From the IMG/VR virus record IMGVR_UViG_3300026191_000001, positions 1 through 64,000 of that record: a stretch of DNA of 64,000 nt; one strand, 5' to 3'. The notes beneath the pieces were generated by a model that saw only the letters and a list, made by a program, of their open reading frames with translations, searched no databases and was not told where the DNA came from. This document shows positions 3,320-64,000 of this stretch, one piece after another. Origin of the DNA: an uncultured virus (IMG/VR IMGVR_UViG_3300026191_000001). Taxonomy: Duplodnaviria; Heunggongvirae; Uroviricota; Caudoviricetes. The position numbers and the translations under genes are program-made. How positions within the stretch are numbered: the stretch's first letter is position 1; each line of letters starts with the position of its first letter.

Positions 3320-3418
3320 CTACAATGGCCAAGGATGGCTATTGTTCATTTACAGTCTTGCTTAAGGGTAGTATGCTTGATTGAAAATTAGGCTAATTGA
3401 CGATACTTAGGCGGCAAG

Positions 3419-3811
3419 ATGGGCATACTCGATCCCTCTAAGCTCAATATAAAAGTTGAGCAAATTCCTACCGAAAGTGAAGTTATTAAAATCTTCAATG
3501 AACGACAGAAACTTGTCGCTCTATTTATCTGTTCGCCTATGGCCGTTAAGAAAGGCCGATACACTTTTACTTCAGTGCTTCTAGACGTTAGTTATGAGGA
3601 TAGTGTCTGCCAGATACTCAACTCATTTCTAGCTGCGGAAAAGAGTGGAGATTATCGCAAGTTCTTAAACTTCAAAACGCGGTCCTCCGATGTATCTTAT
3701 TTTTCTATAAATACCCTTCGCTTAAAGCTCTCATACTTTGGCGTCTGGGTGCTAATTATCTTGAGTTCACTTGGTATTAATCTCGGTTTAATGAAGTATT
3801 TGGGGCACTAA
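3419..3811 (+). CDS. Hypothetical protein with C-terminal transmembrane helix
   Basis: 130-aa ORF with hydrophobic C-terminus; AATTGACGAT motif upstream at 3395. Confidence 0.55.
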   Translation: MGILDPSKLNIKVEQIPTESEVIKIFNERQKLVALFICSPMAVKKGRYTFTSVLLDVSYEDSVCQILNSFLAAEKSGDYRKFLNFKTRSSDVSYFSINTLRLKLSYFGVWVLIILSSLGINLGLMKYLGH

Positions 3812-3812
3812 G

Positions 3813-4271
3813 ATGGACTCAACAACCTTGCTAGCACTCTTGGGAGTGATGGCCACTATTAGTGGTGTAGCGGTAACAATCGCGCTATTTATCATATCGG
3901 GAATAAAATCTGATATGAAAAGCGCACATGAAAGTTTTTCACAAAGTAATAAAAACCTGTGGGAAACCGTAAATAAAAATCACGCCACAGCAAACGCCTT
4001 AGCCACAAAAATCGCGGGAGAACTCGCAGCATTTAAAGAACACGTAGCATTAGCTCACCCGAGGGAAGAACGCGTTAACGAAAAGCTTGAATTCAACAAG
4101 CAGCATATCGACCAAGCCCTCTCAGGCATAAACCACCGTCTTTCGAAACTGGAATCTGACCAAAGTATCGTCATTCAGCATATGACCCAGATCAGTAACC
4201 AGCAATCACAAACAATGTCCTATTTAAAAGAACTGGTTAAAAACAAAAATTTTGAGGCTAAAAATGGCTAA
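3813..4271 (+). CDS. Membrane-anchored coiled-coil protein, holin-like position
   Basis: N-terminal TM helix; immediately upstream of the endolysin. Confidence 0.5.
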   Translation: MDSTTLLALLGVMATISGVAVTIALFIISGIKSDMKSAHESFSQSNKNLWETVNKNHATANALATKIAGELAAFKEHVALAHPREERVNEKLEFNKQHIDQALSGINHRLSKLESDQSIVIQHMTQISNQQSQTMSYLKELVKNKNFEAKNG

Positions 4272-4833
4272 CTACTCCGCAGACCCAAGAGTCCAAGCTT
4301 ACGTCGCTCAAATTGTGAAACTAGAAGCGGGGTACGTAGATAACCCTCACGATAAAGGTGGGCCTACGAACTGGGGAATTACTGAAAAGGTTGCACGCGC
4401 TCACGGTTACACTGGCGCTATGAAAGATATGCCGCAATCCAAAGCCCGAGAAATCTACTTACAGACCTATTGGTTTGGCCCTCGTATCTCGGAGCTGGCT
4501 TCGGTAAGCCCTGATATAGCGTGGGAGGTGTTTGAAGCTGGGGTAAATCTTGGTACCGGCACAGGAATAAAGTTCCTGCAGCGTGCGTTGAATGCCTTTA
4601 ATAAGATGCAAACCATCTACATCGATATAAAGGTGGATGGGATATTTGGTAGCAAAACCCTTAAGGCCTTGCAGCTTTACTTTGCCCATCGTAAAGCCTT
4701 GGCCGAACCTGTTCTTTTAAAAGCGCTCAATTGTTTACAAGGTGCTTATTATTTAGAACTGGCCGAATCCAGAGAGACAGACGAAACATTTGTCTTTGGT
4801 TGGATAAATAAGCGCATAGCGCTAAGAGATTGA
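4264..4833 (+). CDS. Endolysin, glycoside hydrolase family 108 with peptidoglycan-binding C-terminus
   Basis: EAGYVDNPHDKGGPTNWGIT signature; LQRALN..VDGIFGSKT; FVFGWINKRI. Confidence 0.92.
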   Translation: MANYSADPRVQAYVAQIVKLEAGYVDNPHDKGGPTNWGITEKVARAHGYTGAMKDMPQSKAREIYLQTYWFGPRISELASVSPDIAWEVFEAGVNLGTGTGIKFLQRALNAFNKMQTIYIDIKVDGIFGSKTLKALQLYFAHRKALAEPVLLKALNCLQGAYYLELAESRETDETFVFGWINKRIALRD

Positions 4834-4852
4834 CGATAATTGGAGCTACAAC

Positions 4853-5173
4853 ATGAAAGCCGCATTAATACTTCTTTTTAGAAACTTTGGTGCCGCATTG
4901 CTGACACGACATATGATTTTGTTCTTGTTAAAGCTTGCGGCGAAATTTACTGAAAACAAAATCGACGACAATGTTGTTGGTTTGATCAACGCAGGGTTCA
5001 AAAGTGATATCGAATCTATGCAGTGGTATATCGAAGCGATATCAAACGAGGTTGAAATCGAACTGAGGAAAAGGCGAGAGGCGGAGCTTGCCGAAAGCGA
5101 GGTGATTGGTGAACCCTCAACCCCTACACCAGACCCCCGCCCAGAGCCACCAGAACCGACAAAACAAAAGTAA
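4853..5173 (+). CDS. Lysis-cassette accessory protein (hypothetical)
   Basis: GGAG RBS, hydrophobic N-terminus, follows the endolysin. Confidence 0.5.
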   Translation: MKAALILLFRNFGAALLTRHMILFLLKLAAKFTENKIDDNVVGLINAGFKSDIESMQWYIEAISNEVEIELRKRREAELAESEVIGEPSTPTPDPRPEPPEPTKQK

Positions 5174-5188
5174 CTAAACCCTAGAAAC

Positions 5189-5217
5189 AAAAAAGCCACT
5201 CTAAGAGTGGCTTTTTT
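5189..5217. terminator. Bidirectional intrinsic terminator
   Basis: AAAAAAGCCACTC-TAA-GAGTGGCTTTTTT between converging lysis and integrase genes. Confidence 0.85.
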
Positions 5218-5233
5218 ATGGGTTTCACTTAAT

Positions 5234-6844: not shown

Positions 6845-6877
6845 ATCGTCAATTTCCAAATTGTAAAAGTTAGCTTA

Positions 6878-9138: not shown

Positions 9139-10163
9139 TATTCAGCCTCCGCGCTTAGGTCCATAAACTGGCCCCAAAGTTGATTCGTAGTTTCAGTTGA
9201 AACGTTGTGTTCCGCCATTGTCGATTTGAAGATACCTTCTAAGTCGAAGCTATCGAGATTAACTTCCAGTTCGTCGTCTTTATTTTCCGACACACGTTTG
9301 AAAGTCAGGCTCAAACAATCCACTTCAGCAATCGGGGCCTCCGTTGGTAGAAGCGTGATTCGAAGGTTCATGTTTTTGAACTTATCAGGGTCAGCTTCTA
9401 AGGCCGTGGTTGCTTCTTGAAGCGAGAGCGTTATGTAGAGCTGGTTGTTTGGGTCCTCGGCATGCGAGTAGGGTTGCATAGAGCCGGTAACCCAGACTGG
9501 CGTATCACCTTCCATAAAAATACGGGGGGTATGATAGTGGCCAGTGATAACCGCAAGTGCTGTTTGCATTTCTTCAAACGGGATCAAGTTATCTGTCGCT
9601 GAGCTATCTTCACTAAAAGCAAGAATGTCCCAATGACCAAAGGCGAAGAAACCTACCGGTGGCTTAATCTCTGCCGCAATTTCTTTCGCAGTTTTAAAAG
9701 GGTGCCACGGGTAGAAAACAAAGTGCTCTTTATCAATGGTTAGTTTGAGTGCGCTTTCTGAAACAACATGAATATTCGGAACGTGAGCCACAAGCTGTGT
9801 AAATACATCAAACGAGCTTTTGAACTGGGTATCTCTCGAAGCGTCATGGTTGCCGCGAATTATCACGAACTGACGGTCAGGATAATTACTGGCCGCGAGA
9901 CGATAAACGTCGGCCGCAAATAAAATATCTTCTTCAGGAACGCGAAACTTATCAAACAAGTCTCCCATACAAACGTGAAGCTTATACCCTGGCGAGTTAA
10001 CAATACCCGCAAAGGTATCTTTCACCATTTCTTCGCGCTCACCTTTGCGGTGTGTTGGTACGCCGGTATTAAATTTACGTGCTAGGTGAGGGTCACCTAA
10101 CGTCTGAACAAAAGAGGGGAGTTTAATTAAATCGTTTAGCGATTCGATTGGTTGCATTTGCAT
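9138..10163 (-). CDS. SbcD/Mre11-like metallophosphoesterase nuclease
   Basis: GDPH, GDLFD, GNHD, GHYH motifs; adjacent to the SbcC-like gene. Confidence 0.9.
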   Translation of the reverse strand: MQMQPIESLNDLIKLPSFVQTLGDPHLARKFNTGVPTHRKGEREEMVKDTFAGIVNSPGYKLHVCMGDLFDKFRVPEEDILFAADVYRLAASNYPDRQFVIIRGNHDASRDTQFKSSFDVFTQLVAHVPNIHVVSESALKLTIDKEHFVFYPWHPFKTAKEIAAEIKPPVGFFAFGHWDILAFSEDSSATDNLIPFEEMQTALAVITGHYHTPRIFMEGDTPVWVTGSMQPYSHAEDPNNQLYITLSLQEATTALEADPDKFKNMNLRITLLPTEAPIAEVDCLSLTFKRVSENKDDELEVNLDSFDLEGIFKSTMAEHNVSTETTNQLWGQFMDLSAEAE

Positions 10164-10190
10164 CGTCAATTTCCTAAATAAAAGTTTATA

Positions 10191-10679
10191 TTATGGTTTC
10201 ATAAAAACTAAAAAGTGAGTTAATCCTGAACGGCCTGAAACTTGCCCAAATAGTGGTTTAACTGGACATAGAGGAAGTATCTCTTTGAGTTTTATTTGAG
10301 TTTCATTCCATTTGAAAACAAGTGTTCCCCCAGGTTTCAAAACTCTTAAGCACTCATTGAATCCTTTGTTCAAATCTTCTCTCCAATCATTACCTAATTT
10401 ACCATATTTTGCGGCAAGCCAACTTTTAGGACCTGCTCTCTCTAAATGAGGTGGGTCGAAAGCTACAATGTTGAAAGTGTTATCAGCAAAAGGAAGTTCT
10501 CTAAAATCCATTAAAGTGTCGGGTTCAATTTTTATAGTTCGAGTCCCATCCGATTTATGCGTTCTATCTGTAACAGTTATAGTCTCGTTTCTAATATCAC
10601 CATATACTGCAGAGGGGTGAGCTTTATCCAACCACCACATTCGAGACCCTGAACAAGGGTCTAAAACTGTTTTTTGCAT
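10191..10679 (-). CDS. SAM-dependent (probably DNA amino) methyltransferase
   Basis: LDPCSGS, FDPPH, RVLKPGGTL. Confidence 0.85.
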   Translation of the reverse strand: MQKTVLDPCSGSRMWWLDKAHPSAVYGDIRNETITVTDRTHKSDGTRTIKIEPDTLMDFRELPFADNTFNIVAFDPPHLERAGPKSWLAAKYGKLGNDWREDLNKGFNECLRVLKPGGTLVFKWNETQIKLKEILPLCPVKPLFGQVSGRSGLTHFLVFMKP

Positions 10680-10689
10680 CGTCAATTTC

Positions 10690-11064
10690 CTAAATAATAA
10701 TTGAGGGGACTTGGCCCTCAGTAAAGTTAACTCTAATTTTCCAGTTTAAATCTGGGCTAAAATACGGCCAGTATTCGAGTACAAATCTTTTAATATCTGG
10801 ATAGACACCAACAGCGTGTCCCAGCACAGCAAAGCATAAAACTCGGTAAGCCGCATTAGGGTTCCTAAGTTCATTGAAGTCCTCAAACTCTTCGGATTCT
10901 TCATCTGGTTCCCAAGGTTGAACAATTCGGGGTAAAAAGTTCTGGTCTGTTATATGTCCTCTTCGCCACAACAAAACCAGCTTTGCCAGCCTAGCATTCC
11001 TCCAAATTAAAGTATTAATTTCAGTTTCAGCGTGTAAGGCCCATCCACAAGTAACCTCAAGCAT
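10690..11064 (-). CDS. Hypothetical protein
   Basis: ORF within operon; GGAG before ATG 11064. Confidence 0.55.
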   Translation of the reverse strand: MLEVTCGWALHAETEINTLIWRNARLAKLVLLWRRGHITDQNFLPRIVQPWEPDEESEEFEDFNELRNPNAAYRVLCFAVLGHAVGVYPDIKRFVLEYWPYFSPDLNWKIRVNFTEGQVPSIII

Positions 11065-11068: not shown

Positions 11069-11476
11069 TTATCTCCACGTAAATTGAAACTGCGTGAGTT
11101 CTTCAAAACGCATAGACTTCTTAGGCCAGCTTAGAATTAGGGATGCTGGGACTTTAAACCAGCCATCAATACTTATGAAATGGAGGTAGAAGTAGTAGAG
11201 GCCCCCAGCTTTGGTTACCTTGGTTGCTTCGCGCCATTGACGTTTCTCAATTCGAGAGAAATCAAAGCGGGAACTTTCAGCAATACTTTTTACTTCCGCG
11301 TAGGCCGTTAAACCTTTTTCGGTAACAAGATAGTCTGAGGGTTTTGATGAAACGATACGTTTGCGAACGCGAGACTTGTTTACATCAGCATGATCTTCGA
11401 AGCGATATACATGAGCGCCCAGCGCTTTCATATTCTCTTCGAAGATATCTTCGGAGGGTTTACCAGTGTTTTGCAT
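11069..11476 (-). CDS. PD-(D/E)XK nuclease, Holliday junction resolvase-like
   Basis: GKPSE..PSDYLV..YAEVKS..Q motif. Confidence 0.75.
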   Translation of the reverse strand: MQNTGKPSEDIFEENMKALGAHVYRFEDHADVNKSRVRKRIVSSKPSDYLVTEKGLTAYAEVKSIAESSRFDFSRIEKRQWREATKVTKAGGLYYFYLHFISIDGWFKVPASLILSWPKKSMRFEELTQFQFTWR

Positions 11477-11501
11477 CGTCAATTTCCTAATTGTATAAAA
11501 C

Positions 11502-12008
11502 TTATTTTGTTTTATTTAGAGTTAATACTCTTTTAGGTTTATCACCTTTATCATCTGATGTTGACTGGCGTGTGCCGCGTCCCACTTTCTGATTTATGAT
11601 AATCCCTTGCTTCTTGTTCTTACGTCGAGAGCGTAAGTACATAGAATGTAGTTCAACCATTCTCTTACGAGCATGGTCTGCTTCGGATTCGGTTACTCTA
11701 CCGTCAGGCTTTCCCCAGAGGTTAAAGCGCTGGGCACCAGTACGAATACGATTGAGGTATTTTATAGAATTAACGTGAAAGCCTATCGCATCGTATAGTT
11801 CTCTTGAGCTGACTTTCTTAGGAGAAATAACCGCACGAAGTTGCTCATAAATATCCCTACTTAACGGTTTGTTAGTTAAGATTCGGAATTTATTTTTACG
11901 ACAATAGGTGACCACCCAAAGCCAGCAATGGATAGGTTTTTCAAATTGTAATTTTTTAGAATTATATTTAAGGCTTACACCTTCAATTCCAAAAGTGGCG
12001 TTATCCAT
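11502..12008 (-). CDS. ProQ/FinO-domain RNA-binding protein
   Basis: KPLSRDIYEQL..SSRELYDAIGFHVNSIKYL..GAQRFNLWGKPDGRVTESEADHA follows the FinO-domain pattern (PLxxGI..YL..GxxRxDLxG..G.V...A); basic C-terminal tail. Confidence 0.8.
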   Translation of the reverse strand: MDNATFGIEGVSLKYNSKKLQFEKPIHCWLWVVTYCRKNKFRILTNKPLSRDIYEQLRAVISPKKVSSRELYDAIGFHVNSIKYLNRIRTGAQRFNLWGKPDGRVTESEADHARKRMVELHSMYLRSRRKNKKQGIIINQKVGRGTRQSTSDDKGDKPKRVLTLNKTK

Positions 12009-12033
12009 GCTCAACTCGTCAATTCATATTTTA

Positions 12034-15100: not shown

Positions 15101-15606
15101 AACAATGACGTTGAAGTACTGTAAGTTCTGATATAGTCCGTGTTGTTTAGTTCTAATTCTGGAACCGCACTATTCAGATGAGTTAGGAAATCTTCAGGAT
15201 TGGTGATTTTTAGCTTAGCGTGCTCGTCTTTATCATAATCGAATAGGATTAGACTTGGACCTTTTGTGATCATAGATTTCGAAGAACGTGTGCCATACAC
15301 ACCGGTTTCATCTACGTGCACTGGATATTCATAGCCACGGCGCTCAAACTCGTTACTGGTTAGGACCTCTACAAACTCGTGGTCCGTATCCATAACGCCA
15401 GGGGTAAAACACTGGTTAGGCTCTAGGCTTTTTATAAAATCGGGTAACTGTGAGAGTGTTAGCTGCACTCGTTTTGCTGTACCTGTCACCATCTTAGGTG
15501 CATCACTTACAATTTTACCATGCTCCATTCGTAGCTCTTTGGTGAGCACTCCGGTGGAGTTCGTAAAAAGTGTCAGGTAAAACGGTTGTTCTACTTGGTT
15601 AGCCAT
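12103..15606 (-). CDS. Replication protein: AEP-like primase N-terminus fused to origin-binding SF2 helicase (UL9/CyRepA1-like)
   Basis: FDYD and GFHIY primase-like motifs; KSEKGTGKT, IMDEVCQ, CMDADL, SPSMGTGHSID, QHMSRVR helicase motifs. Confidence 0.75.
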   Translation of the reverse strand: MANQVEQPFYLTLFTNSTGVLTKELRMEHGKIVSDAPKMVTGTAKRVQLTLSQLPDFIKSLEPNQCFTPGVMDTDHEFVEVLTSNEFERRGYEYPVHVDETGVYGTRSSKSMITKGPSLILFDYDKDEHAKLKITNPEDFLTHLNSAVPELELNNTDYIRTYSTSTSLFDKETNKVIRPADGFHIYMLVDKGEDIARFGKMLEKRCWMAGLGHIKVSASGGRLPRTIFDTSVFQPERLCFEAGAFIKLKESFYQKLPKGEINRRGKRSLKTTLLKDYTPTQDKEFRRVVELEKQSEDVINRVSEFREIKVQRMVNTTHYTQMPLSRDEAMKIVKAHENKILHPADVLEFEDGRITSVLEAFLNPTLYDGAQLQDPLRPEKGYSKAKFYANAGRYGDYNPTIHSFVEGERNFELRESIETFMSKTEATESRLEEFDNKAMVIDQRYLPELRLRPGITLVKSEKGTGKTYMLKKQVQDFDGRVIAISQLISLVNSLSKQFNLADYNEIESERLHSLRMQKRLGICLNSIYKLQGQNYDIVIMDEVCQLVRAIKATTVDKPAACLKVLREIIAGAKFVICMDADLNKEFVDLMRDPQFGILPEDRTINVIVNKYRPAKEQQRQVTLYQDTDGKGDTSAFVEALMCEAKTTGLFYASNSKVDVLKKAATIIEEMGGDSQLEHEHFMTEINGRRVITITSNNSQTPDVQAFIRDLNGNLKDDDIFMSSPSMGTGHSIDATEMGAKFKKTFAFFTKMAGNLPSDCLQHMSRVRECTDYHIMYLDNARRYPTAPLEIVQKEIYGNRNTIDNKLSVQFISEYDYATERLKINDHGWSDWYGQLKSFENNKLNHFSKNLINALENEGYNINTLYTLASEEGYNLKMLMDELTDQIREVEKQKLRDTELLTDEEFEILDNQTLKNAEEQRQLLKKRQARLFGLEAGDELNDVVTMSTQALNGRRKGLMLGANNDDLFLIDMINRFDTKRHDKDKTAFADHQGLGRGFFYHLGVIFLNDIPTYDGREITDLEKDRAFDFLLAHARDLEILQGIRMPLCDTDKKRHEFVRRVLTSFGMKYRREKKRVGVSSVYKYYLDDERFNRWVEDVRRAKELSHSTMFTGLEEVPGNLKAYVFQALAGSPQVSELHPYISKLHPEIQNRLISLLNNKLFVATTNVA

Positions 15607-15656
15607 CGTCAATTCAATCCAAATTGTAGCGGCCCTCTAAGTGAGAGCCGACTTCA

Positions 15657-16265
15657 TCAAAGTTTACTTAGGTCTGCAGGGGTGTAATCAACAGACTTAA
15701 GCACTTTGCCAGCAGCATAGCTTTTACCATCTTTATCGGTACTAGCTTCTTTGACCTTAACGGCCCATAGCGCGGTACCTTCATTTTTATTTTTATTGGT
15801 AAGTGTTACAGGTTTTGCTTCAACACTAACACCCAATGCGGTGTAGTGGTCGAGTGTCGCTTGCACGTTATCATCGTTACATAGCTTACTCATATTCGAG
15901 TGATGAACAATATCCCAGGCTTTTAGGATATCGAAGTTTATTTCTTCGGAAGCTGATAGAAGTGTTTCTACAACGTTGAGTTCACAAGGTTCTTGTTCGT
16001 CTAGAACGATATCGAACTGAACATATTTACCAAACAACACATAGAGGCTATCCACAATAGCATCTATTTTATCTACTCGGGTTTCTGCGCTGAAAAGCTC
16101 CCGCATTTCTTCGCGATATAAGTCGAAGTGTAGTTGATAGTCTTGTGCGCTATCGGGCACACCTATTGGCAAGTCAAAAGCGGTTCTGAAGTCATTAATA
16201 TCGCTGAAAAACTTTTTAAAGATTTCAGGCGTTAAAAAGTTATATTTAATACCGTAAAATATCAT
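15657..16265 (-). CDS. MazG-like/all-alpha NTP pyrophosphohydrolase
   Basis: EEMREL..DAIVDSLYV..VHHSNMSK..GKVLKS. Confidence 0.85.
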   Translation of the reverse strand: MIFYGIKYNFLTPEIFKKFFSDINDFRTAFDLPIGVPDSAQDYQLHFDLYREEMRELFSAETRVDKIDAIVDSLYVLFGKYVQFDIVLDEQEPCELNVVETLLSASEEINFDILKAWDIVHHSNMSKLCNDDNVQATLDHYTALGVSVEAKPVTLTNKNKNEGTALWAVKVKEASTDKDGKSYAAGKVLKSVDYTPADLSKL

Positions 16266-16354
16266 CGTCAATTTCCTTTAATTTTTAAGTATGAGACCAG
16301 TATTATAAAAAGTAATCAAGTGAGTTGCTGGCAAACTAACTGGGTTTTTATTAA

Positions 16355-39423: not shown

Positions 39424-39434
39424 CGTCAATTTCC

Positions 39435-47714: not shown

Positions 47715-47727
47715 CATCAATTTCCTT

Positions 47728-47910
47728 TTAGTTGAACAAGTGTGTTTCGGTAAAATATAAATCCTTAATATTCTCTTCAGTTAAGACTTTAAGGTGCTTT
47801 TTTAATCTAGAAAGTAGAATGGTTCGGGTATACGGGCCATCGTTAATAACAAACCCTTCGCGCTGCTTACCATGAGGACCCACCAGCCATGTATTTTTAA
47901 CGGTAATCAT
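47728..47910 (-). CDS. Hypothetical protein
   Basis: Variant motif GGAAATTGATGATG. Confidence 0.55.
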   Translation of the reverse strand: MITVKNTWLVGPHGKQREGFVINDGPYTRTILLSRLKKHLKVLTEENIKDLYFTETHLFN

Positions 47911-48192
47911 CATCAATTTCCTTGTATCTGGGGGAGAATGTTCCCCCCCCTTAAATCGCCGCGACAGTCACGGCCCTGTAGTTGCCAAATTCCCTTCACG
48001 CGAATTGCTATCACAATCCACCAGCCAAGCCCCTAGACACGAGAGCCTAGGCACTGGCACACACCACCAGCATAGGTAGGCACGCGCTTAATAGCCTCGT
48101 GAAAAATAAAAAACCGATTAGCACTAGCCGTGCTAATCGGTTTTTCGTTTCTCGAATTGAGGGGGGGGAATGTTCCCCCCGTCCCGCTGGGC

Positions 48193-48909: not shown

Positions 48910-49000
48910 AATCGTCAATCCTTAAAAGTTAATTTGTTGGTGGGGGAATGTTCCCCCCCCCTCGATGCGAGTAATTCGGTACTTGCGTCGAGTTGCATTC

Positions 49001-49209: not shown

Positions 49210-49413
49210 AAAAAGAAAACCCCGAGGGATTATGGCCACTCGGGGTTTGAGACGTTCAACGTAATCAGAGGTCGTTGTTCGTAGGATAAGCTTGAAACTA
49301 GGTATGCGGACGGGCACAAAGATTAGAACAGGCTTTATCGTCAATTTCCAAATTGTAAGGAGCGCTGGGCTCCCGCGGTTGAGGCATGTAAGCTGTTTGC
49401 TGTCAACGCCAAC
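49210..49413 (-). ncRNA. Candidate ~200-nt small RNA carrying the start-associated motif
   Basis: TTGACC-15-TATACT upstream; two 5' hairpins; UUACAAUUUGGAAAUUGACGAUA with no following AUG; terminator AAACCCCGAG..CTCGGGGTTTTCTTTTT. Confidence 0.5.
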
Positions 49414-52181: not shown

Positions 52182-52670
52182 TTACTCCTGATTAAGTACG
52201 AGTTTCATTTCTTCGATAAACTCAGTTTTTTGCTGCGGTGTTAGATAGCGCTCCATGCTATCGAGGATAAACGTTTTGAATACACCAAATTGTTTTATAC
52301 CTGAGGCTCGTTCTTGAACATCGAGGATTTTTTCCATCAGTGACACCATGGTACGAAACGTACTGGTCATTTCGCTTGTGTCACTTTTGTTCAGTGCCGT
52401 TTTAAATGTTTTCATATCACGGTAAAGCTGAAGGGCTTCCGTCTCGAAATCAGGAACCGCATCTGAATCCTCTATTTCTGAGTCTGCAACGGTTATGCCA
52501 GCGTCGGTTTGGATGCTAAAAATAGCGGTAAGGAATTCTATCTCGTTGGGCTCGTAAGGGCAGTCTTCATCGTCGAGGTAGGTTGGGTCGTCTTGAATTA
52601 GTTTTTTCCACGTATTCAGCGTTGTGAAAAGGTTCGGGGTGAACTCAGGATAGAACTTGGGTGTTTTCAT
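52182..52670 (-). CDS. Hypothetical protein, possible small terminase subunit
   Basis: Helical 162-aa protein divergent from terL; start motif. Confidence 0.45.
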   Translation of the reverse strand: MKTPKFYPEFTPNLFTTLNTWKKLIQDDPTYLDDEDCPYEPNEIEFLTAIFSIQTDAGITVADSEIEDSDAVPDFETEALQLYRDMKTFKTALNKSDTSEMTSTFRTMVSLMEKILDVQERASGIKQFGVFKTFILDSMERYLTPQQKTEFIEEMKLVLNQE

Positions 52671-52782
52671 CGTCAATCTCCGCTTTGTTATAGGTTAAAT
52701 ATCATACCGCAAGATTGCCTGTATAGTCAGTAACGCGTAATCTATTCGGAAAATAGACTAATTGACGATAATTGAGGTAGCT

Positions 52783-54564: not shown

Positions 54565-54582
54565 CAATTTGGGAAATTGACG

Positions 54583-56043
54583 ATGGCCGTAACAATACTT
54601 AGCAAGCTCAAGGTAATTGTGCCTAATCGGTTTAAGCCGAAAGGGAGTACACAAACTGCGACCTATAACGCAGAGAACAACACAGAAGTCCTATCGCTCC
54701 CAGATTATCGGGAACACCTAGAAGATATCTATTCAAGTCGAGTTTCGGATAATTCACAAACACTCATTATGAAGCTTGTTAAGTCCGACCCTGATGCGTC
54801 AGCCGCATTAGGCGCATATCTTACTACGGCGGGGAGCTCTATCCCGTATATCGTTGTAAAAGACCCCGACGGGGCGATTGACCGCGATGGCGCCAAGATA
54901 GTTAATGAACTTATTGAAGCCTTAGAGACCCGCCGCGACTACTCTAAAGGTTATTTAAGACCTAAGACTCTGCGAGAACTATCAGAAGAATTCCGCTACA
55001 TGCTATTAGCCCGAGGTGGTATAGGCTGTGAAACGGTATTTGGGGATCAACTTCAATTAACTGAGCTTCGCAATATCGATATGGCCAGTATTCGATGGCA
55101 AGAAAAAGAGCCTGGGAAAATGGTGCCATGGCAAGACCAAGGGGGCGGGGACCCAATTAAAATGGATATCCCTTCTTTCTTCGTAGCTTGGTACCGAAAA
55201 TCACCTATTGAAGCTTACGGCCATAGCCCCTTCGTTAGTGCAATTAATACCATGGCAGCAAGGCAACAGGTGATTAATGACTTGTATCGAATCATGCAAG
55301 TTACAGGGTTCCCGCGAATCGCTATCAAGGTACTTGAAGAAGTCTTGGTGAAAAATGCCCCTGCGGATGTTAAGGTCGATCCACAAAAACTAAGAACCTA
55401 TATTTCTCAACGCCGCCAAGATATTGGAGGCGCGTTTGCTTCGCTGCGCCCAGACCAAGCGATGGTTCACACCGACAGTGCTGAAGTTTCAATGCTTAAT
55501 GAAAAGAACCCAGCGACGGGTATTAAAATTCAGGAAGTGATTGATACGCTTAACGCCCAAAACCAAGCAGGGTTAAAGACGATGGCCACTGTACTTGGTC
55601 GGGGTGAATCTGGTGTAAATACCGCTACAGTTGAAGCGAACTTGTTTGCCAAAGCTGCCGATAGCTTGAATGAACCTATCGGAGAAATCTTAGGCAGCAT
55701 GCTTACGATGGCTTTACGTATGCAAGGCTCCGAGAGTCGAGTTATTGTCAGATTCCCTAATATTGATTTGCGTTCGGAGCTTGAGCTAGAGGCCCAATTG
55801 AACTTGAAGTCAAACCGCTTGCGAACCGACCTAAGTGATGGGTTGATAACCGACGATGATTACCATATTGCCATGTACCGTCGCATTAGACCGGACTCCG
55901 TAGCTGAGCTAAGTGGAACGGGGTTTATTGGCGGCGCTATGGAAGTAGAAGCAGAAAAAGTAAGCCCTAATTCTGACCCACAAGGACGTTCTGTTAGTCG
56001 TGCTTCAGACAAAAGTGCAAAGTCTAACGCTAACCAGTCTTAA
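54583..56043 (+). CDS. Portal protein
   Basis: 486 aa directly after terL; YGHSP motif. Confidence 0.75.
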   Translation: MAVTILSKLKVIVPNRFKPKGSTQTATYNAENNTEVLSLPDYREHLEDIYSSRVSDNSQTLIMKLVKSDPDASAALGAYLTTAGSSIPYIVVKDPDGAIDRDGAKIVNELIEALETRRDYSKGYLRPKTLRELSEEFRYMLLARGGIGCETVFGDQLQLTELRNIDMASIRWQEKEPGKMVPWQDQGGGDPIKMDIPSFFVAWYRKSPIEAYGHSPFVSAINTMAARQQVINDLYRIMQVTGFPRIAIKVLEEVLVKNAPADVKVDPQKLRTYISQRRQDIGGAFASLRPDQAMVHTDSAEVSMLNEKNPATGIKIQEVIDTLNAQNQAGLKTMATVLGRGESGVNTATVEANLFAKAADSLNEPIGEILGSMLTMALRMQGSESRVIVRFPNIDLRSELELEAQLNLKSNRLRTDLSDGLITDDDYHIAMYRRIRPDSVAELSGTGFIGGAMEVEAEKVSPNSDPQGRSVSRASDKSAKSNANQS

Positions 56044-56118
56044 GGTTAATTTTTAATCGGGCTTGGCAACGCGATTGAAAAGCCCTAAGATAATCGAAAA
56101 TTTGGATGGAAATTGACG

Positions 56119-57285
56119 ATGGCTAAACGGCTAACCCTCACTGAGCGTATCAAATCGCTTATCACCGCAGCCGCGGGTGATGAAATAGACTTTTCGCAGA
56201 TTGCAGCGTATGAGAGCGTTGCGGCATCTACTCGTCCAATCAATCAACCAAGCACAGCCTACCATGGCGCACAAATGACAGAAGGCTTTCTGTCACAGAT
56301 GGCGGCGTACTACAAAGAAGAAAGTGTCCCTATTCAGGTCATGCACAATGGTCAGATGCTACCAGTAGGTAAGGTGTTTGCCGCAGATACCTATAGCGCG
56401 GATGAAGGACACACGGACTTAAACGTTCTTTTCTATGTCGATGCTGAAGGCCCTTACGCCCGAGATATTGACCTTTCTATTCTAGATGAGGTTTCTGTCG
56501 GGGCAGCTCCCAATCACGCGTACTGTTCTGAATGTAGTTTCGACTACATGGCCGAAGGCAACGAAATGAGTTTCTGGTTTCGTGAATGTGATAACGGCCA
56601 TCGAATCGGTGAGAACGGAACCCACCTTCGCTTAACCGACCTCCGTGCTTGGAAAGAATTATCACTCGTGAACAAAGGCGCGAGTAATAAACCGAAGATA
56701 CTTGGCTCTGCCAAGCAACGTCTGGGCAAAGACGCATATAACCAGCTTGCCGCTTCAAGTTCTCCTGAAGCCGTACAGTACAGTTATATGACTTGCTCCC
56801 CCACTCAAAGTGAAACAACAGGTGAAACTATGGATTTATCAGCTTTAACAAACCAAGTTTCTACGTTGTCCGCAGCTAACGGCAAGCTAGAAGTTAAACT
56901 CGAATCGGCAGAGGCAGCGCTTACCGCTTCTCAGTCGGAAGTTGCCGCGCTGAAAGGACAAGTAGAAGAACTAAATACGAAGATTGAAAATGGTTCTGAG
57001 ACCAAACTTCAATCTGATCTTTCAGCCGCTCAAGCGCAACTTGAAACGGCGAACAAAATTGTCGGTGTGTTTGATGAACAACTAAAACTGGCTGCGGTTG
57101 CAGCGGGTTTGACGTTGGCTGAAGACGCCAGCGCTGACGAGAAAATTGAGCTGTTAAAACAAGCTCAAATTAAACTGGCAGCAATCCCAAGGGGTGGTGT
57201 TGGCAAAGGTGCGGATACACCGGAAGCTGACGACGTTCTGGTGCTTACTGCCGCGCATAACAGTGCGTTTGTTTCTAATCGATAA
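56119..57285 (+). CDS. Prohead protease/scaffold
   Basis: VMH..PVGK, EVSVG, ELSLVNKGA; coiled-coil C-terminus. Confidence 0.75.
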   Translation: MAKRLTLTERIKSLITAAAGDEIDFSQIAAYESVAASTRPINQPSTAYHGAQMTEGFLSQMAAYYKEESVPIQVMHNGQMLPVGKVFAADTYSADEGHTDLNVLFYVDAEGPYARDIDLSILDEVSVGAAPNHAYCSECSFDYMAEGNEMSFWFRECDNGHRIGENGTHLRLTDLRAWKELSLVNKGASNKPKILGSAKQRLGKDAYNQLAASSSPEAVQYSYMTCSPTQSETTGETMDLSALTNQVSTLSAANGKLEVKLESAEAALTASQSEVAALKGQVEELNTKIENGSETKLQSDLSAAQAQLETANKIVGVFDEQLKLAAVAAGLTLAEDASADEKIELLKQAQIKLAAIPRGGVGKGADTPEADDVLVLTAAHNSAFVSNR

Positions 57286-57689: not shown

Positions 57690-57731
57690 TTCGGAAGATT
57701 CGCACCACAAATAAAAATTTGGAGATTGACG

Positions 57732-58937
57732 ATGCAAGCAGCAAATCTTAGTCAGATTAAACGCGCCCCACTTAACGTGGTTTTAGCGGGTATTAATAGT
57801 GAGCACAGCGACGAATCTATTCGCGCTGGCGTAAAGCTGGTACAAGCAGCAAAACAATACGGTATTAACGTTCGTGATTACCTAAACCTAGCCGTTGATG
57901 TTCGTGCGTCAAACGATGCTGAGTCTGGTAAAAACTTCCGCTTGGATAATGGTAACTTTATGACCGGCTACCAAGCGGCTATCTTAGAGTTGAACCTTCC
58001 GTTCAAAAACGCTTTTGAGCAAGGCATTACCCTTCAAGCTGCAGCGGATACTTTCAGTGCACGCCCTGGCTCTCGCGCACTTTTCCCTGAAGTTATTGAT
58101 GATATGCTTCAGTGGAATACGCGCCAAGATATGTTCGAATCAACGGCACCTATGGTGGCACAGACCCGAACTATCACAGGTAACGAACTTATTACCACCG
58201 CAATTTTTGACGATCAAGGCCAGCTAAATACTTCGCCTATCGCTGAACTTGCGAACATTCCGATGCAGACTATCAAAAGCTCTGATAAGTCGGTTAAGTT
58301 CTTCAAGCATGGTTCAGGTATCCGTACCTCATACGAATTTGAACGTCGTGTGAGCCTAGATATCCTAACTCCATATGCGGCCCGTATTGCTCGTAACAAA
58401 GAAATCAGCAAAGTGAAGATGGCAACCTCGCTATTGATTAACGGTGATGGTGTTCACGAAGCTGCAGAAGTGGTTCCAGCTTCTAATTATAAAGATTGGG
58501 ATGAGGCTAAAGGCCTTAAAGGTAACTATGTTGCCTTAGCGGACTTCTTGGCGCAACGTGCGCGTAAAGGCGTACCGGTTGATACTATCGTAGGTAACTA
58601 CGATATGTGGCTAGAACTGTTCCTAATGTTCTTACCAACTCAACCTAACGGTAAGTCTACCTCTGAAATTCTTCAGGAGAACGGTGGGCCTCGCGTGGCT
58701 CTGGCCATGGACTTCTTAAGCGGTGTCAACTTCCATATTTCAAGCTCAGCCCCTACGGGTAAGCTGATTTGTTATTCGAAGGCTGACACGCTGGAAGAAC
58801 TTATCGAAGCCGGTTCGGTACTGTCTGAGTCTGAGACAGCAATCAAGAACCAGTCGATTACTTACGTGAAAACTGAGAACTCAGGCTATCGCCTAGTTTA
58901 CGGTGATACCCGCGTAATCTTCGATACTGAGGCCTAA
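57732..58937 (+). CDS. Major capsid protein
   Basis: 401 aa; LFPEVI, IAELANIP, KHGSGI, LINGDG; followed by a hairpin. Confidence 0.8.
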   Translation: MQAANLSQIKRAPLNVVLAGINSEHSDESIRAGVKLVQAAKQYGINVRDYLNLAVDVRASNDAESGKNFRLDNGNFMTGYQAAILELNLPFKNAFEQGITLQAAADTFSARPGSRALFPEVIDDMLQWNTRQDMFESTAPMVAQTRTITGNELITTAIFDDQGQLNTSPIAELANIPMQTIKSSDKSVKFFKHGSGIRTSYEFERRVSLDILTPYAARIARNKEISKVKMATSLLINGDGVHEAAEVVPASNYKDWDEAKGLKGNYVALADFLAQRARKGVPVDTIVGNYDMWLELFLMFLPTQPNGKSTSEILQENGGPRVALAMDFLSGVNFHISSSAPTGKLICYSKADTLEELIEAGSVLSESETAIKNQSITYVKTENSGYRLVYGDTRVIFDTEA

Positions 58938-59425: not shown

Positions 59426-60112
59426 ATGTTAAGCGTCCCAAATAACGAAATGTTAATGCTGACCGAGTTTCAAATAGGTGACTACACCTATTTGCCGGAC
59501 TTTGGGACCGTAAGTGTCTCCCTCAAGGACCAAGAGGGCGTTGAGGTACATTCGGTGGATGTACCTTTTGATGCTGATTACAGCATCCCTCAAGATATCC
59601 TGAAAGTCAGCAGCAGTGATATCTTGAGCTTTTTTAAGTTGACGGTTAAGTTCACTAGCGAAAATCGCCAACGTATTTATACGGATATTGTTCGGGTTCA
59701 TATGGATTTTATGTTTACATCCACACCTTCTAATCTAAGGACCCTTATCGGGCTATACGAAGAAGAACTCCATGATAGTGAGATTGATTTTATTTACTCG
59801 TTCAATGAGCTGGTAAATGAACTTGGCCAAGGCCTACTTGAAGATACAAACGCTCGTATCAACAAGTTAATTTTGCTACATGAAGCTGTGCGCCACCTTC
59901 CTGCGTTAGGACTGAAAACGCTAAAGTCTAATGAAATTGACGACACTAAGAAGTCTCGACTATCAAATATTGATATAAAAGCCGTGCAGGACTCTATTAC
60001 CTCTCAGTACTGGGCTCACAAATTAACGTTTGAGTCCGTGGCTGAATTCCCTCAAGCCCCACTACTTGAGTTTGTGAGCCGAACCGACCCATTCACAGGT
60101 GAGGACGCATGA
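59426..60112 (+). CDS. Putative head-tail adaptor
   Basis: Position after the capsid gene. Confidence 0.5.
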   Translation: MLSVPNNEMLMLTEFQIGDYTYLPDFGTVSVSLKDQEGVEVHSVDVPFDADYSIPQDILKVSSSDILSFFKLTVKFTSENRQRIYTDIVRVHMDFMFTSTPSNLRTLIGLYEEELHDSEIDFIYSFNELVNELGQGLLEDTNARINKLILLHEAVRHLPALGLKTLKSNEIDDTKKSRLSNIDIKAVQDSITSQYWAHKLTFESVAEFPQAPLLEFVSRTDPFTGEDA

Positions 60113-61962: not shown

Positions 61963-62270
61963 GTAAGTCCTAAGTCCTTCAAGCTTGCGCAAACAGCGAT
62001 TTGAAAAGCTTGTTGACGGGTGTATAGTGTTCGTTGGCAGTACTGATCAAGACGATTCAAAACTTTTTTGGGTAGTCTTAAGGTAAAGCTTTTTGATGAT
62101 GCCGACTTAGGAACAACACGCATATCGATTGGACTTAAGTTATTGTGTAAAAAGTGGTCTAATAAGACGCGCAACTTGTCCGCATCCGATTCACCTTCAA
62201 TAGGTGCTCTGGCTGCGGTCACAAAAATGTTCGTGGGTGTGATGATTGAAATTGGTGTAAGTTTTGCCAT
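61929..62270 (-). CDS. Ribbon-helix-helix DNA-binding protein, antisense to the late operon
   Basis: GGAGGA RBS; SFTLRLPKKVLNRLDQYC..TRQQAFQIAV. Confidence 0.65.
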   Translation of the reverse strand: MAKLTPISIITPTNIFVTAARAPIEGESDADKLRVLLDHFLHNNLSPIDMRVVPKSASSKSFTLRLPKKVLNRLDQYCQRTLYTRQQAFQIAVCASLKDLGLTHFVDSSKAEA

Positions 62271-62325
62271 GTTTCATCCTCCTTCAGCAAGGTATCAATA
62301 ATAACCTAAAATTTGGAGATTGACG

Positions 62326-63156
62326 ATGGCTGGTGAAGCTAAAACAACTGATTTTATGTTGGGTACTGCCACTGTAATGATTGGTAACCCAGAAGACCTC
62401 TATAAACTAAACCCAGAACAACATTCTGTGGGCCTAGTTAAGAATTTCACAATCGAAGCAACCAAGGAACGTTCTGACCTTACCCAAGGCCGAACTAACG
62501 ATGTTGTTTTCACACTAACAACCGGTGCCACGACTCGAGGCACATTCGAAATGTACGAATACACTGAAAAGAACCTTGCTTACGCGTTGGGTCTAGACGG
62601 TGGGGAGTTGGTATCTCCTGAAGGTGATGCTCACGTAGTTAAGACTGCAGCTTCTTTCTCATCCGGTGCGGTATCCCTAGAACTCAATGATGGTACAGGA
62701 CAGGATATTAAGGTAGGTAGCTGGGTTAGTGTTCGCGACCCTATCTCAGAAAATATTGTTTTAGGTACCGTAACAAATGTTTCAGGGCTTACAACGGGTA
62801 CGGCAGAAACCGCTACTATAGAAGTAGAAGTACCTGACAGCACTATGGCTTGGGAAGTTCCGGCTGGCGCATATGTATCCCTAGTAACGGTACTTGATGT
62901 GGGCTCAACGGATGTTGACCGAGACTTTGCCGCTAAGGTTCAAGGCCAGCTAGCTAACGGTAAGTGGATCACACTTCTTATTCCTAAGATGCGTGTTTCT
63001 TCAGGTCTTACTATGGCATTTGGTACCGACAACTTCGGTAATACACCATTTGAGTTTACGCCACTTAAAGTTACACCTTCCGATACTTACTATGCACCTT
63101 TCAAAGGTACCTCTGGTAAGTTGGTTCATGACTCAGTACAAAGCGCATTGTCGTAA
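62326..63156 (+). CDS. Major tail tube protein
   Basis: Position, start motif, terminator; FGNTPFEFTP. Confidence 0.75.
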   Translation: MAGEAKTTDFMLGTATVMIGNPEDLYKLNPEQHSVGLVKNFTIEATKERSDLTQGRTNDVVFTLTTGATTRGTFEMYEYTEKNLAYALGLDGGELVSPEGDAHVVKTAASFSSGAVSLELNDGTGQDIKVGSWVSVRDPISENIVLGTVTNVSGLTTGTAETATIEVEVPDSTMAWEVPAGAYVSLVTVLDVGSTDVDRDFAAKVQGQLANGKWITLLIPKMRVSSGLTMAFGTDNFGNTPFEFTPLKVTPSDTYYAPFKGTSGKLVHDSVQSALS

Positions 63157-63181
63157 AAACCCTGGGTTTAAAAACTGTTTA

Positions 63182-63206
63182 GAAGGCCTCTTCGGAGGCC
63201 TTTTTT
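63182..63206 (+). terminator. Intrinsic terminator
   Basis: AAGGCCTC-TTCG-GAGGCCTTTTTT. Confidence 0.85.
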
Positions 63207-63219
63207 AAGGAAATTGACG

Positions 63220-63567
63220 ATGAGTGATAACCCTTCTGTAACCTTTAACATCAGCGTTAACGGCGAAGATAAAGAAGTTTTCATGAGTTTTGCGCTACTC
63301 AATACCATCACAGGGTACTTTAGAAATGCGGAAGAACTCGAACAAATCCTCTTAAATTCCGACGTTCGAGCGAGTGTAATTACTGAACTCCTATCTGAAA
63401 GAAATGAGACGGGCCGAATAACCCAGAATTTCGATATTAATACAATGAAGGCAGACCCAGACCAAATACTGGACTTGCTGGAATGGGTATCGGAGCACGT
63501 TGAGACTTTTTTTATGAAGGCTCTACAAAGAGCCAAGCAACGAATGAAGAAGAAGCAGACCACTTAG
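63220..63567 (+). CDS. Tail assembly chaperone (gpG-like)
   Basis: Between tail tube and tape measure; contains slippery T-TTT-TTT at 63507-63513. Confidence 0.75.
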   Translation: MSDNPSVTFNISVNGEDKEVFMSFALLNTITGYFRNAEELEQILLNSDVRASVITELLSERNETGRITQNFDINTMKADPDQILDLLEWVSEHVETFFMKALQRAKQRMKKKQTT

Positions 63568-63878
63568 AAGTCTTCAATTCTTGGTACCTAAAACTGTCGT
63601 TTGAAGAGCAGTTGTGTTTTGTTTTCGAAACGGTACCCAGCCAGCTACAGAAGATATTTTGGTCACATAGTAACCAAGATATCAAAGTTAAAACCAAGCT
63701 AACACTTGGATTAAAGACTGTCACAATGACCCAAGAGTATGTGACGTTATTGAATGCCGCAGGGACTATCTTCGGTAAAAAAGAAAGTGGTTCAGGCAAG
63801 CCCAGACGTAAAACTACGAGCACGGTACCAAAAGATGAAATAGAAGCTGAGGCCCGAGCAAGAGCCGTTTTTGGGTAA
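63510..63878 (+). CDS. -1 frameshift extension of the tail chaperone (gpGT-like)
   Basis: -1 frame is open from the slippery site to the stop at 63878. Confidence 0.65.
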   Translation, partial: FYEGSTKSQATNEEEADHLEVFNSWYLKLSFEEQLCFVFETVPSQLQKIFWSHSNQDIKVKTKLTLGLKTVTMTQEYVTLLNAAGTIFGKKESGSGKPRRKTTSTVPKDEIEAEARARAVFG

Positions 63879-63897
63879 CAATTAGGGGAAATTGACG

Positions 63898-64000
63898 ATG
63901 GCCGGCAGCAATGCATCCAATACAATTAGAAATACCTTACTTAATTTTACCGTCGATCCTAAATCCAAAAAGGTAATCGAGGAACTAACTCGCGAGTTTG
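63898..64000 (+). CDS. Probable tape measure protein, 5' end only
   Basis: Start motif ATG; follows the chaperone pair; runs off the window. Confidence 0.6.
   Translation, partial: MAGSNASNTIRNTLLNFTVDPKSKKVIEELTREF

Follow-up and report, generated by a model that had tools for sequence, protein, structure and literature searches.

A conserved motif at the gene starts of an uncultured marine temperate phage is probably the target box of a phage-encoded antisense small RNA

Our study concerns a 64,000-bp stretch of DNA, hereafter the window, which corresponds to bases 1-64,000 of the 81,404-bp record of an uncultured virus (IMG/VR IMGVR_UViG_3300026191_000001); the record has 69-bp end repeats and is rated complete, and the Pfam domain content of the genome is that of a tailed temperate phage. 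A 13-nt motif with the core ATTGACGA recurs at its gene starts, and we identified, outside the window, a candidate small RNA (sRNA) gene whose unpaired centre holds AUCGUCAAUUUCC, the exact complement of GGAAAUUGACGAU. On the evidence of sequence, we consider it probable that a single antisense sRNA, encoded by the phage and acting in trans, uses the motif as a target box common to its mRNAs; it would control translation starts genome-wide in the manner of the RocC/RocR system. The initial annotation of this DNA had proposed that most genes of the phage are addressed at their starts by one factor acting in trans, which could be a protein or an RNA; the exact complement, the co-variation of motif and RNA, and a phage protein with a ProQ/FinO domain lend support to that proposal.

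The core ATTGACGA occurs 41 times in the window, where 2.19 copies are expected (standard deviation 1.36, largest 6; none of 100 shuffles reaches 41), and 46 times in the whole genome. Likewise, GGAAATTGACGAT with at most two mismatches has 42 matches in the window against 1.86 expected, and the exact 13-mer is present 28 times in the 81,404-bp genome, with no match for the reversed-pattern control. All 41 window copies of the core are co-oriented with the gene strand of their own block (plus at 1-5.2 kb; minus at 5.3-52.7 kb, except for a plus-strand pair at 32.6-33.7 kb; plus from 52.76 kb). The AT of the motif is the AT of the start ATG in 26 of the 46 genome copies, and the start lies 2-3 nt beyond the motif in another eight, which places 34 copies within 0-3 nt of a start. 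In eight others the start is 8-41 nt further on, several of them having a separate GGAG/GAGG (3396, 4829, 29288, 52761), and four have no start of an open reading frame (ORF, at least 40 aa) within 60 nt; the gene-internal copy at 59936 belongs to these four. These figures bear out what the initial annotation had described: about 41 core copies plus variants throughout the genome, a sense orientation of every gene-associated copy, a usual position at the start codon, some copies displaced from a start with a separate ribosome-binding site or lying further upstream, and one copy inside the first codons of the repressor candidate (32612-32624, an HTH gene). The individual copies are given in Table 1.

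To that picture we can add that the motif is found on genes preceded by an intergenic gap; where a gene start overlaps the stop of the preceding gene, the motif is absent and ordinary, variable GGAG/GAGG sites with free spacers are used. The GGA of the motif is present where the ATG abuts it and is missing in five of the seven copies that have their own Shine-Dalgarno (SD) sequence downstream, a pattern which indicates that GGA is the working SD element and that ATTGACGAT is a separate conserved core. An ordinary SD site would consist of a purine core only, leave its spacer free and be used by the host as well; here, the spacer is invariant and the host lacks the 13-mer, in agreement with the earlier claim that the motif is more than an SD sequence. 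The distance between SD and start would be fixed because it must stay complementary to the sRNA. We also observed that the two divergent junctions (52,677-52,761 and 32,390-32,603) are each flanked by outward-facing motif copies, one per strand, at distances of 86 and 235 nt, respectively. Transcription running leftward from a start to the right of 52,770 would yield RNA complementary to the start region of the terminase gene, and a covariance model of the sRNA (see below) has a weak match at this junction (52,749-52,796, minus strand, E 0.21).

A fragment with an identical terminase lies on a contig of an Alteromonadaceae metagenome-assembled genome (MAG); the six exact matches to the 13-mer in this MAG are all on four small contigs, and 150 other Alteromonadaceae genomes hold 0-3 exact copies each (42 in total, against 15 for the reversed control). 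This scarcity rules out a host start signal as the identity of the motif. The initial annotation had named two patterns that would contradict it, an equal abundance of the motif in antisense orientation or at host starts, and we found neither, as genes carry it in sense only and hosts hold 0-3 copies. The core is kept, strand-biased and in 7-46 copies each, in the records of 11 of 11 relatives, whose terminases are 59-100% identical; only 12% and 8.5% of the genome is alignable at the DNA level with two of them (G001 and G161, respectively). The nearest isolate, Pseudoalteromonas phage KB12-38 (terminase identity 50.6%, same gene order), carries the variant motif GGATTGACA, and in 27 copies GGATTGAC(A) is followed by 0-5 nt and an ATG. 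In Achromobacter phage JWF (46% terminase identity) no equivalent start motif was found. JWF has a palindromic 13-mer, GTTCGTAACGAAC, in 11 copies that lie mostly about 15 nt upstream of early-gene starts and in the terminal repeats; it resembles a set of operators more than a start motif. When viral contigs were scanned with a 14-mer, the matches listed were mostly single chance ones.

Special attention was given to the only one of the 46 genome copies that is antisense to its neighbours (69,706-69,718, outside the window). It lies within a 214-nt gap between two plus-strand tail genes, in the candidate sRNA gene of about 78 nt (genome 69,679-69,757, plus strand; 5679-5757 of locus L009). The gene is preceded by a sigma-70-like promoter, TTGACA-N17-TAGTAT (69,643-69,671), and in the prediction a 5' stem-loop follows after 7 bases, then some 18 nt without pairing, and then a GC-rich hairpin of 11 bp and the U-tail UGUUCUGUUUUU. 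The full unpaired stretch, UUAUCGUCAAUUUCCAAAUC, is complementary to the motif and its common flanks, and the fold has a z score of -3.44, with none of 200 shuffles as good. All 21 related loci, which comprise 13 distinct sequences, have the same module ahead of the orthologous minor-tail gene, and so does KB12-38. All ten distinct sRNA sequences folded form a stem-loop, an unpaired seed and a terminator (z -3.3 to -5.3, 0-1 of 200 shuffles as good). The consensus fold of seven sequences has 21 pairs, six of them with compensatory double changes, and its seed columns are unpaired and nearly invariant; in a 12-sequence alignment, double changes affect five of the eight pairs of the terminator stem. 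The predicted promoter hexamers match at 7-10 of 12 positions with spacers of 16-17 nt in 11 of 11 lineages, and a predicted hairpin plus U-run terminator is present in all the sRNA folds. Among close relatives, the predicted transcript differs at 1-2 positions, against about 91% identity in the surrounding DNA. Judging from these features, the sRNA gene would be an independent transcription unit with its own predicted promoter and intrinsic terminator.

The covariance model of the sRNA scores 98.5 bits, with one strong match per genome; in the window it gave only weak, seed-only matches (E 0.2-0.4), and in JWF, the motif-less relative, none. JWF has overlapping genes at the syntenic place. 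A search of Rfam with 401 nt around the sRNA gene returned no match at E values up to 10, and a scan of viral contigs for the anti-motif pattern yielded 41 loci, mostly unrelated coding sequence, the real ones being only the six known types. A tiny minus-strand ORF over the sRNA gene was rejected as a gene, since it is not conserved: its length is 3 codons both in this genome and in G001 and 10 in KB12-38, and G160 lacks it. Between the sRNA terminator and the start motif of the minor-tail gene there is a second promoter-like element with a conserved TATACT (L009 5,760-5,810; genome 69,760-69,810), which is kept in most lineages.

The pairing between RNA and motif was assessed by duplex prediction between the 30-nt seed region and 88 start regions. 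The energies are bimodal: 33 of the 88 regions lie at or below -17.6 kcal/mol (mostly -20 to -27), and the others are at -15 or weaker. As controls, 100 shuffled seeds gave a mean of 2.2 such regions (maximum 16), and the reversed seed gave 2. It should be considered that a few motif-bearing genes were missed in this set, where crude gene calls had picked the wrong start.

Two sets of changes in the RNA are matched by changes in the motif. First, in KB12-38 the box GGAUUGACA stands opposite the RNA seed UUGUCAAUCC, and both are the variant; in that phage, the seed of the genome studied here finds no exact site and 4 with one mismatch, against 4 exact and 19 with one mismatch for the phage's own seed. 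Second, the RNAs of three relatives (G004, G005 and G164) have G where the others have A, opposite the seventh base of the motif. Copies of ATCGACGAT number 19, 19 and 8 in these genomes, respectively, and 0-2 in each of the nine A-type genomes counted. In G004 and G005 the C-type copies stand beside 21 and 17 copies of ATTGACGA(T), and in G164, a distant lineage, 8 of 9 sites are of the C type; of the 19 C sites in G004, 10 have a T site as their orthologue in the genome studied here. On a tree of the adjacent gene, the A-to-G change must have arisen twice independently, and none of 200 bootstrap trees is compatible with a single origin. G pairs with both U and C, whereas A pairs with U only; consequently, pairing between two RNAs would be expected to give the observed pattern, a mixture of T and C that appears only where the RNA has G, and such a pattern is difficult to derive from protein-DNA recognition.

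This last point bears on the possibility that the motif acts at the DNA level, as a site comparable to the stoperators of L5, at which the phage repressor or another protein would block or pause RNA polymerase, and which would be found at gene starts as the sole non-coding DNA available. The stoperators of L5 and cluster A are dozens of 13-bp asymmetric DNA sites for the immunity repressor that are not tied to starts, one of them being the operator of the early promoter. The motif resembles them as a set of dozens of oriented 13-bp sites over a temperate phage genome that would be read, and the genome silenced, by one factor. In the same direction, the phage is temperate (integrase, HTH genes, and some relatives classed as proviruses), its asymmetric, oriented sites are also present on both sides of the divergent junctions at 32.4/32.6 kb and 52.68/52.76 kb, and TTGAC resembles a -35 hexamer. 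However, even in gaps longer than 100 nt, such as the one at 38,159, the motif is placed directly at the start, so lack of space is not the reason for its placement. The dependence of GGA on an abutting ATG, with its loss in most copies (5 of 7) that have a separate SD, means that the 5' part works in the mRNA; the core is identical across the 59-100% range of terminase identity, unlike immunity operators; and the freedom between U and C is tied to a G in the RNA, which follows wobble rules and not those of protein-DNA recognition. Promoter-like sites, moreover, are not enriched (16 found against 25.3 expected), and no overlap with promoters was seen. Unlike the case of L5, the evidence here points to RNA-RNA pairing at the ribosome-binding site, tied to start codons, and we consider a stoperator-like function very unlikely. 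The same count of promoter-like sites, together with an information profile that shows no conserved -10 at any fixed distance, led us to reject the reading of TTGACG as part of a sigma-70 promoter.

A further explanation requires no reader: the motif could act in cis only, as a ribosome-binding cassette of standard form (a weak SD, GGA, then an A/U-rich spacer free of structure and the ATG) that is spread and kept uniform by recombination among gene cassettes; the inverted copy and its hairpins would then be a cassette that landed backwards. It would agree with the presence of the motif on genes that initiate alone after a gap and its absence from coupled genes, and also with the observation that at 34-49 kb the motif belongs to a longer repeat. 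There, a GC-rich palindromic hairpin (GGGGGGAATGTTCTCCCCCC type; 9 copies, window 34,883-48,961, behind small early genes) is usually followed by a AATTAACT box (15 minus-strand against 4 plus-strand copies) and then by the start motif. A repeated hairpin and an A/T box are present in KB12-38 too, in a version particular to that phage; the hairpin is CGGGGTAACGTTACCCCG, with about 18 copies, and it is accompanied by ATTAAACTAAAA. These repeated hairpins could be terminators or 3'-end elements for a ProQ-like protein.

Recombination at the motif is also apparent. Of the 48 unique sites at which homology with five relatives breaks off, 12 are no more than 20 nt from a motif, whereas random placement gave 1.26 on average and never more than 7 in 5000 trials. 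Among junctions, breakpoints were seen at 17 of the 41 that bear a motif and at 9 of the 46 that do not (odds ratio 2.9, p 0.035). Contigs of relatives from RNA libraries, compared over 32-52 kb, join different genes exactly at motif copies, and relatives' contigs diverge or lose single genes exactly there (Table 1). For example, the foreign sequence at 41,544 is the upstream flank of the motif at 11,483, and those at 35,254/6 are the gene starts at 10,170 and 29,993. The motif therefore also serves as a recombination junction. On the other side, the junction enrichment is modest, and when only true gaps in 5-48.5 kb are compared (11 of 22 against 1 of 7, p 0.19) it is not significant. Host genomes do not use the sequence; 9-13 positions are invariant at 20-46 sites per genome across phages with about 10% alignable DNA, which is far more than a ribosome-binding site needs; the inverted copy keeps its synteny, promoter, unpaired display and compensatory stems in 21 of 21 loci; and the T/C mixture is confined to phages in which RNA from the inverted copy would have G. 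These facts make a cis-only cassette unlikely.

The genome also encodes an RNA-binding protein with a ProQ/FinO domain and a basic C-terminal tail, whose residues 47-124 match the N-terminal domain of E. coli ProQ (5nb9, E 1.6e-6). Homologues are present in G001, G002, G004, G161 and KB12-38, that is, in all five other sufficiently complete motif-bearing genomes tested (G160 is a 47% fragment), and among 50,697 phage records KB12-38 was its only match. Proteins of the FinO family, as summarised in a review, bind the terminator hairpins and 3' tails of sRNAs. By co-occurrence and by analogy with its family, the phage protein is likely the chaperone of the sRNA, and it would bind the terminator end as RocC does with RocR. 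It might instead be supposed that this or another phage protein reads the motif directly in the mRNA, as does T4 RegA, and that the complementary RNA is a decoy or irrelevant. The co-occurrence of an RNA-binding protein with the motif fits this idea; but FinO/ProQ domains, according to the same review, recognise terminator hairpins and 3' tails and not single-stranded sequence, and a protein reader predicts neither a complementary RNA gene nor co-variation of the wobble type. For this reason we give it hardly any credence.

Returning to the sRNA as the reader of the box, we propose that it pairs with the start regions of about 33-45 cistrons, among them early, replication, lysis and structural ones, covering the GGA of the SD and the spacer and in many cases the AUG as well. 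From the geometry of the duplex, pairing would block 30S binding and translation would be repressed, and decay of the mRNA may be an added effect. As for timing, our guess is that the sRNA acts as a threshold-setting silencer of leaky prophage transcripts in lysogens and would also act on related superinfecting phages; its predicted promoter is of host type, and it lies in the tail region, as lysogen-expressed accessory genes do. A variant of this proposal keeps the pairing and changes its effect: the sRNA could protect starts from cleavage, direct processing by RNase III, or be a cis leader or attenuator for the tail operon. RNase E prefers A/U sites, and the motif contains one such site. Immediately downstream of the sRNA gene is a tail gene with the motif, the second conserved TATACT promoter-like element standing between the two, and a universal self-repression is hard to rationalise. 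Nevertheless, a duplex over both SD and AUG gives the 30S subunit no access, whereas known activating sRNAs pair upstream of the SD, and a role only in cis would leave the conservation of about 45 distant sites unexplained. We assign a non-repressive effect little probability.

It is important to note that several points weigh against repression by an antisense sRNA. The promoter, the terminator and the transcription of the sRNA gene are all predictions. The changed seed is seen in only two or three independent lineages, and the fit is imperfect in others: in G160 its own 13-nt seed finds 2 exact and 8 one-mismatch sites against 3 and 16 for the seed of the genome studied here, in G161 its own seed is better only when one mismatch is allowed (28 against 24), and in both the complementarity covers only about 11-12 nt around UUGACGAU(G). 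Gene conversion among motif copies, the inverted one included, could in principle mimic part of the co-variation. Mosaic breakpoints are enriched at the motif, which means that recombination also acts on the sites and could help to homogenise their copies. The RNA of KB12-38 was missed by the covariance model (E up to 1), and its homology is assigned through synteny and architecture. Finally, a repressor target on nearly every transcription unit, late and HTH genes included, is paradoxical, and we found no mechanism of relief.

A close known parallel is RocC/RocR of Legionella pneumophila, whose RocR box the initial annotation had already named as an analogue and in which, as a review describes, a FinO-domain chaperone and a trans-acting sRNA that pairs with a conserved box repress four competence mRNAs. 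The two share a FinO/ProQ protein, a terminator-ended sRNA and an exposed region complementary to a conserved start box of distant mRNAs. Unlike RocR, with its four mRNAs in a cellular regulon, the phage sRNA would have about 33-45 targets over most of the phage genome; there is no sequence or Rfam relationship between them, and the phage system is an analogue of the RocR family, not a member.

The phenomenon that comes nearest is that of the start-associated sequences (SAS) of cluster K mycobacteriophages, for which we know of no reader. The motif is like SAS in being 13 nt long, asymmetric, inclusive of an SD core, a few nucleotides from the ATG and placed on genes after gaps, and also in its absence from the host, its conservation (across subclusters in the case of SAS) and its single opposite copy that is not at a gene start. 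It differs in that SAS have the consensus GGGATAGGAGCCC, lie 3-9 bp upstream of starts, belong to cluster K and a host of another phylum, and are on 13-19 non-structural genes only, whereas the phage motif is on early and structural genes alike. Its sequence and phage group place it outside SAS, and the resemblance is functional only. Pope 2011, where the L5 stoperators are mentioned too, leaves the question of an RNA or a protein reader open and describes a single copy in opposite orientation, not at a gene start; a 2024 G3 paper still calls their role unknown. In Mycobacterium phage Adephagia, we found 16 forward copies of SAS and one reverse copy (record 58,682-58,694; 48,683-48,695 of locus L259), the latter within the 432 nt that separate gp92 from gp93. 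The complement of this copy, CCUCCUAUCC, occupies on the plus strand the 10-nt loop of a strong hairpin of 19 bp (z -4.7), which suggests that the reverse copy may be an anti-SAS RNA, modelled on the same principle as here.

Antisense immunity is also known from the CI RNA of P4. The c4 RNA of P1/P7 and STnc6030 of prophage BTP1 are small phage RNAs that repress phage transcripts by pairing, and STnc6030 comes from a tail region and acts in lysogens, according to a review. All of these have in common with our candidate a small phage RNA whose specificity is given by few paired nucleotides, but they have one or two targets or are cis-antisense, and here a standard box stands at most gene starts. 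The PeSL cassettes of T4-type phages consist of a promoter and a stem-loop and are found in hyperplastic regions, not at structural genes; to our knowledge, they have no complementary RNA. The repeats at 34-49 kb are similar to them, as in both cases intergenic stem-loop and expression-signal cassettes flank small genes and mark recombination junctions; unlike PeSL, the motif is also at structural genes and has a complementary RNA gene.

Antisense sRNAs, FinO/ProQ chaperones and phage RNAs that repress one or two phage transcripts are thus already known. In the literature searched, which did not cover supplementary files, we found no phage with a standard box in most of its ribosome-binding sites and a single complementary RNA. 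If our reading is correct, it would represent a new design for the global control of a viral genome, with a one-RNA master switch for about 45 cistrons, and the first function to be proposed for a ProQ/FinO protein encoded by a phage. It would also make conserved start-associated motifs testable, by asking of each lone reverse copy whether it is an RNA. Since the system exists in a cultured pair (KB12-38 and its Pseudoalteromonas host) and in the proviruses of isolates, experiments are feasible. As a tentative extension, possible rather than probable, the sRNA and its ProQ/FinO chaperone may be an RNA version of stoperators, silencing the whole prophage post-transcriptionally, together with superinfecting relatives that share the box, until transcription outruns the sRNA; the same logic would explain the SAS of cluster K.

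Other identities of the motif were tried and discarded. Chi, KOPS, uptake and packaging signals are ruled out by an orientation that follows the genes and a position tied to starts. An upstream inverted repeat, CAATTT..AAATTG, considered as a CsrA-type hairpin or a dimer operator, accompanies only about a third of the copies. For an extension of SD-anti-SD pairing or other pairing with 16S rRNA, a comparison with the rRNA sequence, made by eye only, gave no convincing match.

Table 1. Copies of the start motif in the window and other features. Positions refer to the window unless another record is named; energies are those of the predicted duplex with the sRNA seed, in kcal/mol.
Feature	Position	Strand	Remarks
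GCTAATTGACGAT, upstream type	3392..3404	+	ATG 3419 14 nt on, own purine-rich site; -21.4
AGAGATTGACGAT then TAATTGGAGC (separate SD)	4825..4837	+	ATG 4853
Exact 13-mer	6845..6857	-	ATG immediately after; -24.8
Exact 13-mer	10162..10174	-	AT = start ATG; Mre11-like phosphoesterase gene
Exact 13-mer	10678..10690	-	AT = start ATG
Exact 13-mer	11475..11487	-	AT = start ATG; RecU-like resolvase gene
Variant TGAATTGACGAG	12015..12027	-	ProQ/FinO ATG 7 nt past core; weak duplex, -12.7
TTGAATTGACGAT	15605..15617	-	AT = start ATG; 1169-aa helicase gene
Exact 13-mer	16264..16276	-	AT = start ATG
GGAGATTGACGAT	20695..20707	-	AT = start ATG
Exact 13-mer	21594..21606	-	AT = start ATG; RdgC gene
Exact 13-mer	25843..25855	-	ATG immediately after; 5'-3' exonuclease gene
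Exact 13-mer	26986..26998	-	AT = start ATG
GAATAATTGACGAT, upstream type	29280..29292	-	Next ATG about 23 nt past core; -17.6
Exact 13-mer	29985..29997	-	AT = start ATG
Exact 13-mer	32375..32387	-	ATG immediately after; DNA ligase gene; one side of divergent junction
GAAAATTGACGAT	32612..32624	+	Within codons 4-7 of HTH_3 gene (GTG 32604)
GGAGATTGACGAT	34852..34864	-	AT = start ATG; GC hairpin and AATTAACT box before it
Exact 13-mer	35260..35272	-	AT = start ATG
Exact 13-mer	35896..35908	-	AT = start ATG; upstream hairpin and AATTAACT box
Exact 13-mer	38151..38163	-	ATG 1 nt on (GATTATG)
Exact 13-mer	39087..39099	-	ATG 1 nt on (GATCATG)
Exact 13-mer	39422..39434	-	AT = start ATG
Exact 13-mer	40576..40588	-	AT = start ATG; C5 DNA methylase gene
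Exact 13-mer	41529..41541	-	AT = start ATG; relatives' contigs end exactly here
Exact 13-mer	42678..42690	-	AT = start ATG
Exact 13-mer	43865..43877	-	AT = start ATG
Variant GGAGGTTGACGAT	44013..44025	-	G of ATG next
Variant GGAAATTGACGTT	45029..45041	-	ATG immediately after; RadC gene; -20.9
TGAGATTGACGAT	45891..45903	-	ATG 1 nt on
Exact 13-mer	46308..46320	-	ATG immediately after
Exact 13-mer	47204..47216	-	AT = start ATG
Variant GGAAATTGATGAT	47713..47725	-	Gene start; C-to-U keeps G-U pair with seed; -23.5
Variant GGAAATTGATGAT	47909..47921	-	Gene start; -23.5
TAAGGATTGACGAT	48911..48923	-	ATG 1 nt on
Exact 13-mer	49337..49349	-	No convincing start after it (GATAAAGCC)
GGAGATTGACGAT	52669..52681	-	AT = start ATG; left side of early/late divergent junction
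GACTAATTGACGAT, upstream type	52757..52769	+	Then TAATTGAGG (SD) and GTG of large terminase gene; -20.8
Exact 13-mer	54572..54584	+	AT = start ATG; structural region
Exact 13-mer	56108..56120	+	AT = start ATG; structural region
GGAGATTGACGAT	57721..57733	+	AT = start ATG; structural region; -24.5
TGAAATTGACGAC	59932..59944	+	Gene-internal, sense strand, away from starts; probably a chance coding match
GGAGATTGACGAT	62315..62327	+	AT = start ATG; tail region; -27.0, strongest
Exact 13-mer	63209..63221	+	AT = start ATG
Exact 13-mer	63887..63899	+	AT = start ATG; tape-measure gene
Integrase	5397-6632	-	Pfam
ProQ/FinO-domain protein gene	11502..12008	-	Pfam PF04352, E 7.5e-13
Replication/recombination block		-	Pfam: SMC-like, Mre11-like, RecU-like, helicase, PolA, RdgC, ligase, methylases
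HTH_3 gene	32604-32921	+	Pfam
Large terminase, gpA-type	52762-54561	+	Pfam
Tape-measure gene	from 63892	+	Pfam; tail genes and endolysin also matched
GC hairpin copies	34,883-34,900; 35,926-35,946; 39,121-39,139; 41,558-41,575; 45,070-45,088		
GC hairpin copies, further	47,238-47,256; 47,930-47,950; 48,161-48,180; 48,942-48,961		
Motif-linked divergence points	32,371; 35,254-35,256; 40,607/41,557; 41,544; 42,675/42,890; 47,706/47,903		Relatives' contigs
GTTCGTAACGAAC in JWF, examples	JWF record 69,008; 71,214; 75,033; 76,953; 77,591; 78,613		

A megablast search of the structural region against isolated phages gave no match. We also observed a run of GGTTCT(A/T)GGGTC-like units at 49,120-49,200 of the window, upstream of a small ORF (48,929-49,123) and near the primase gene (49,670-52,177); the units are iteron-like, and a replication origin may be located there.

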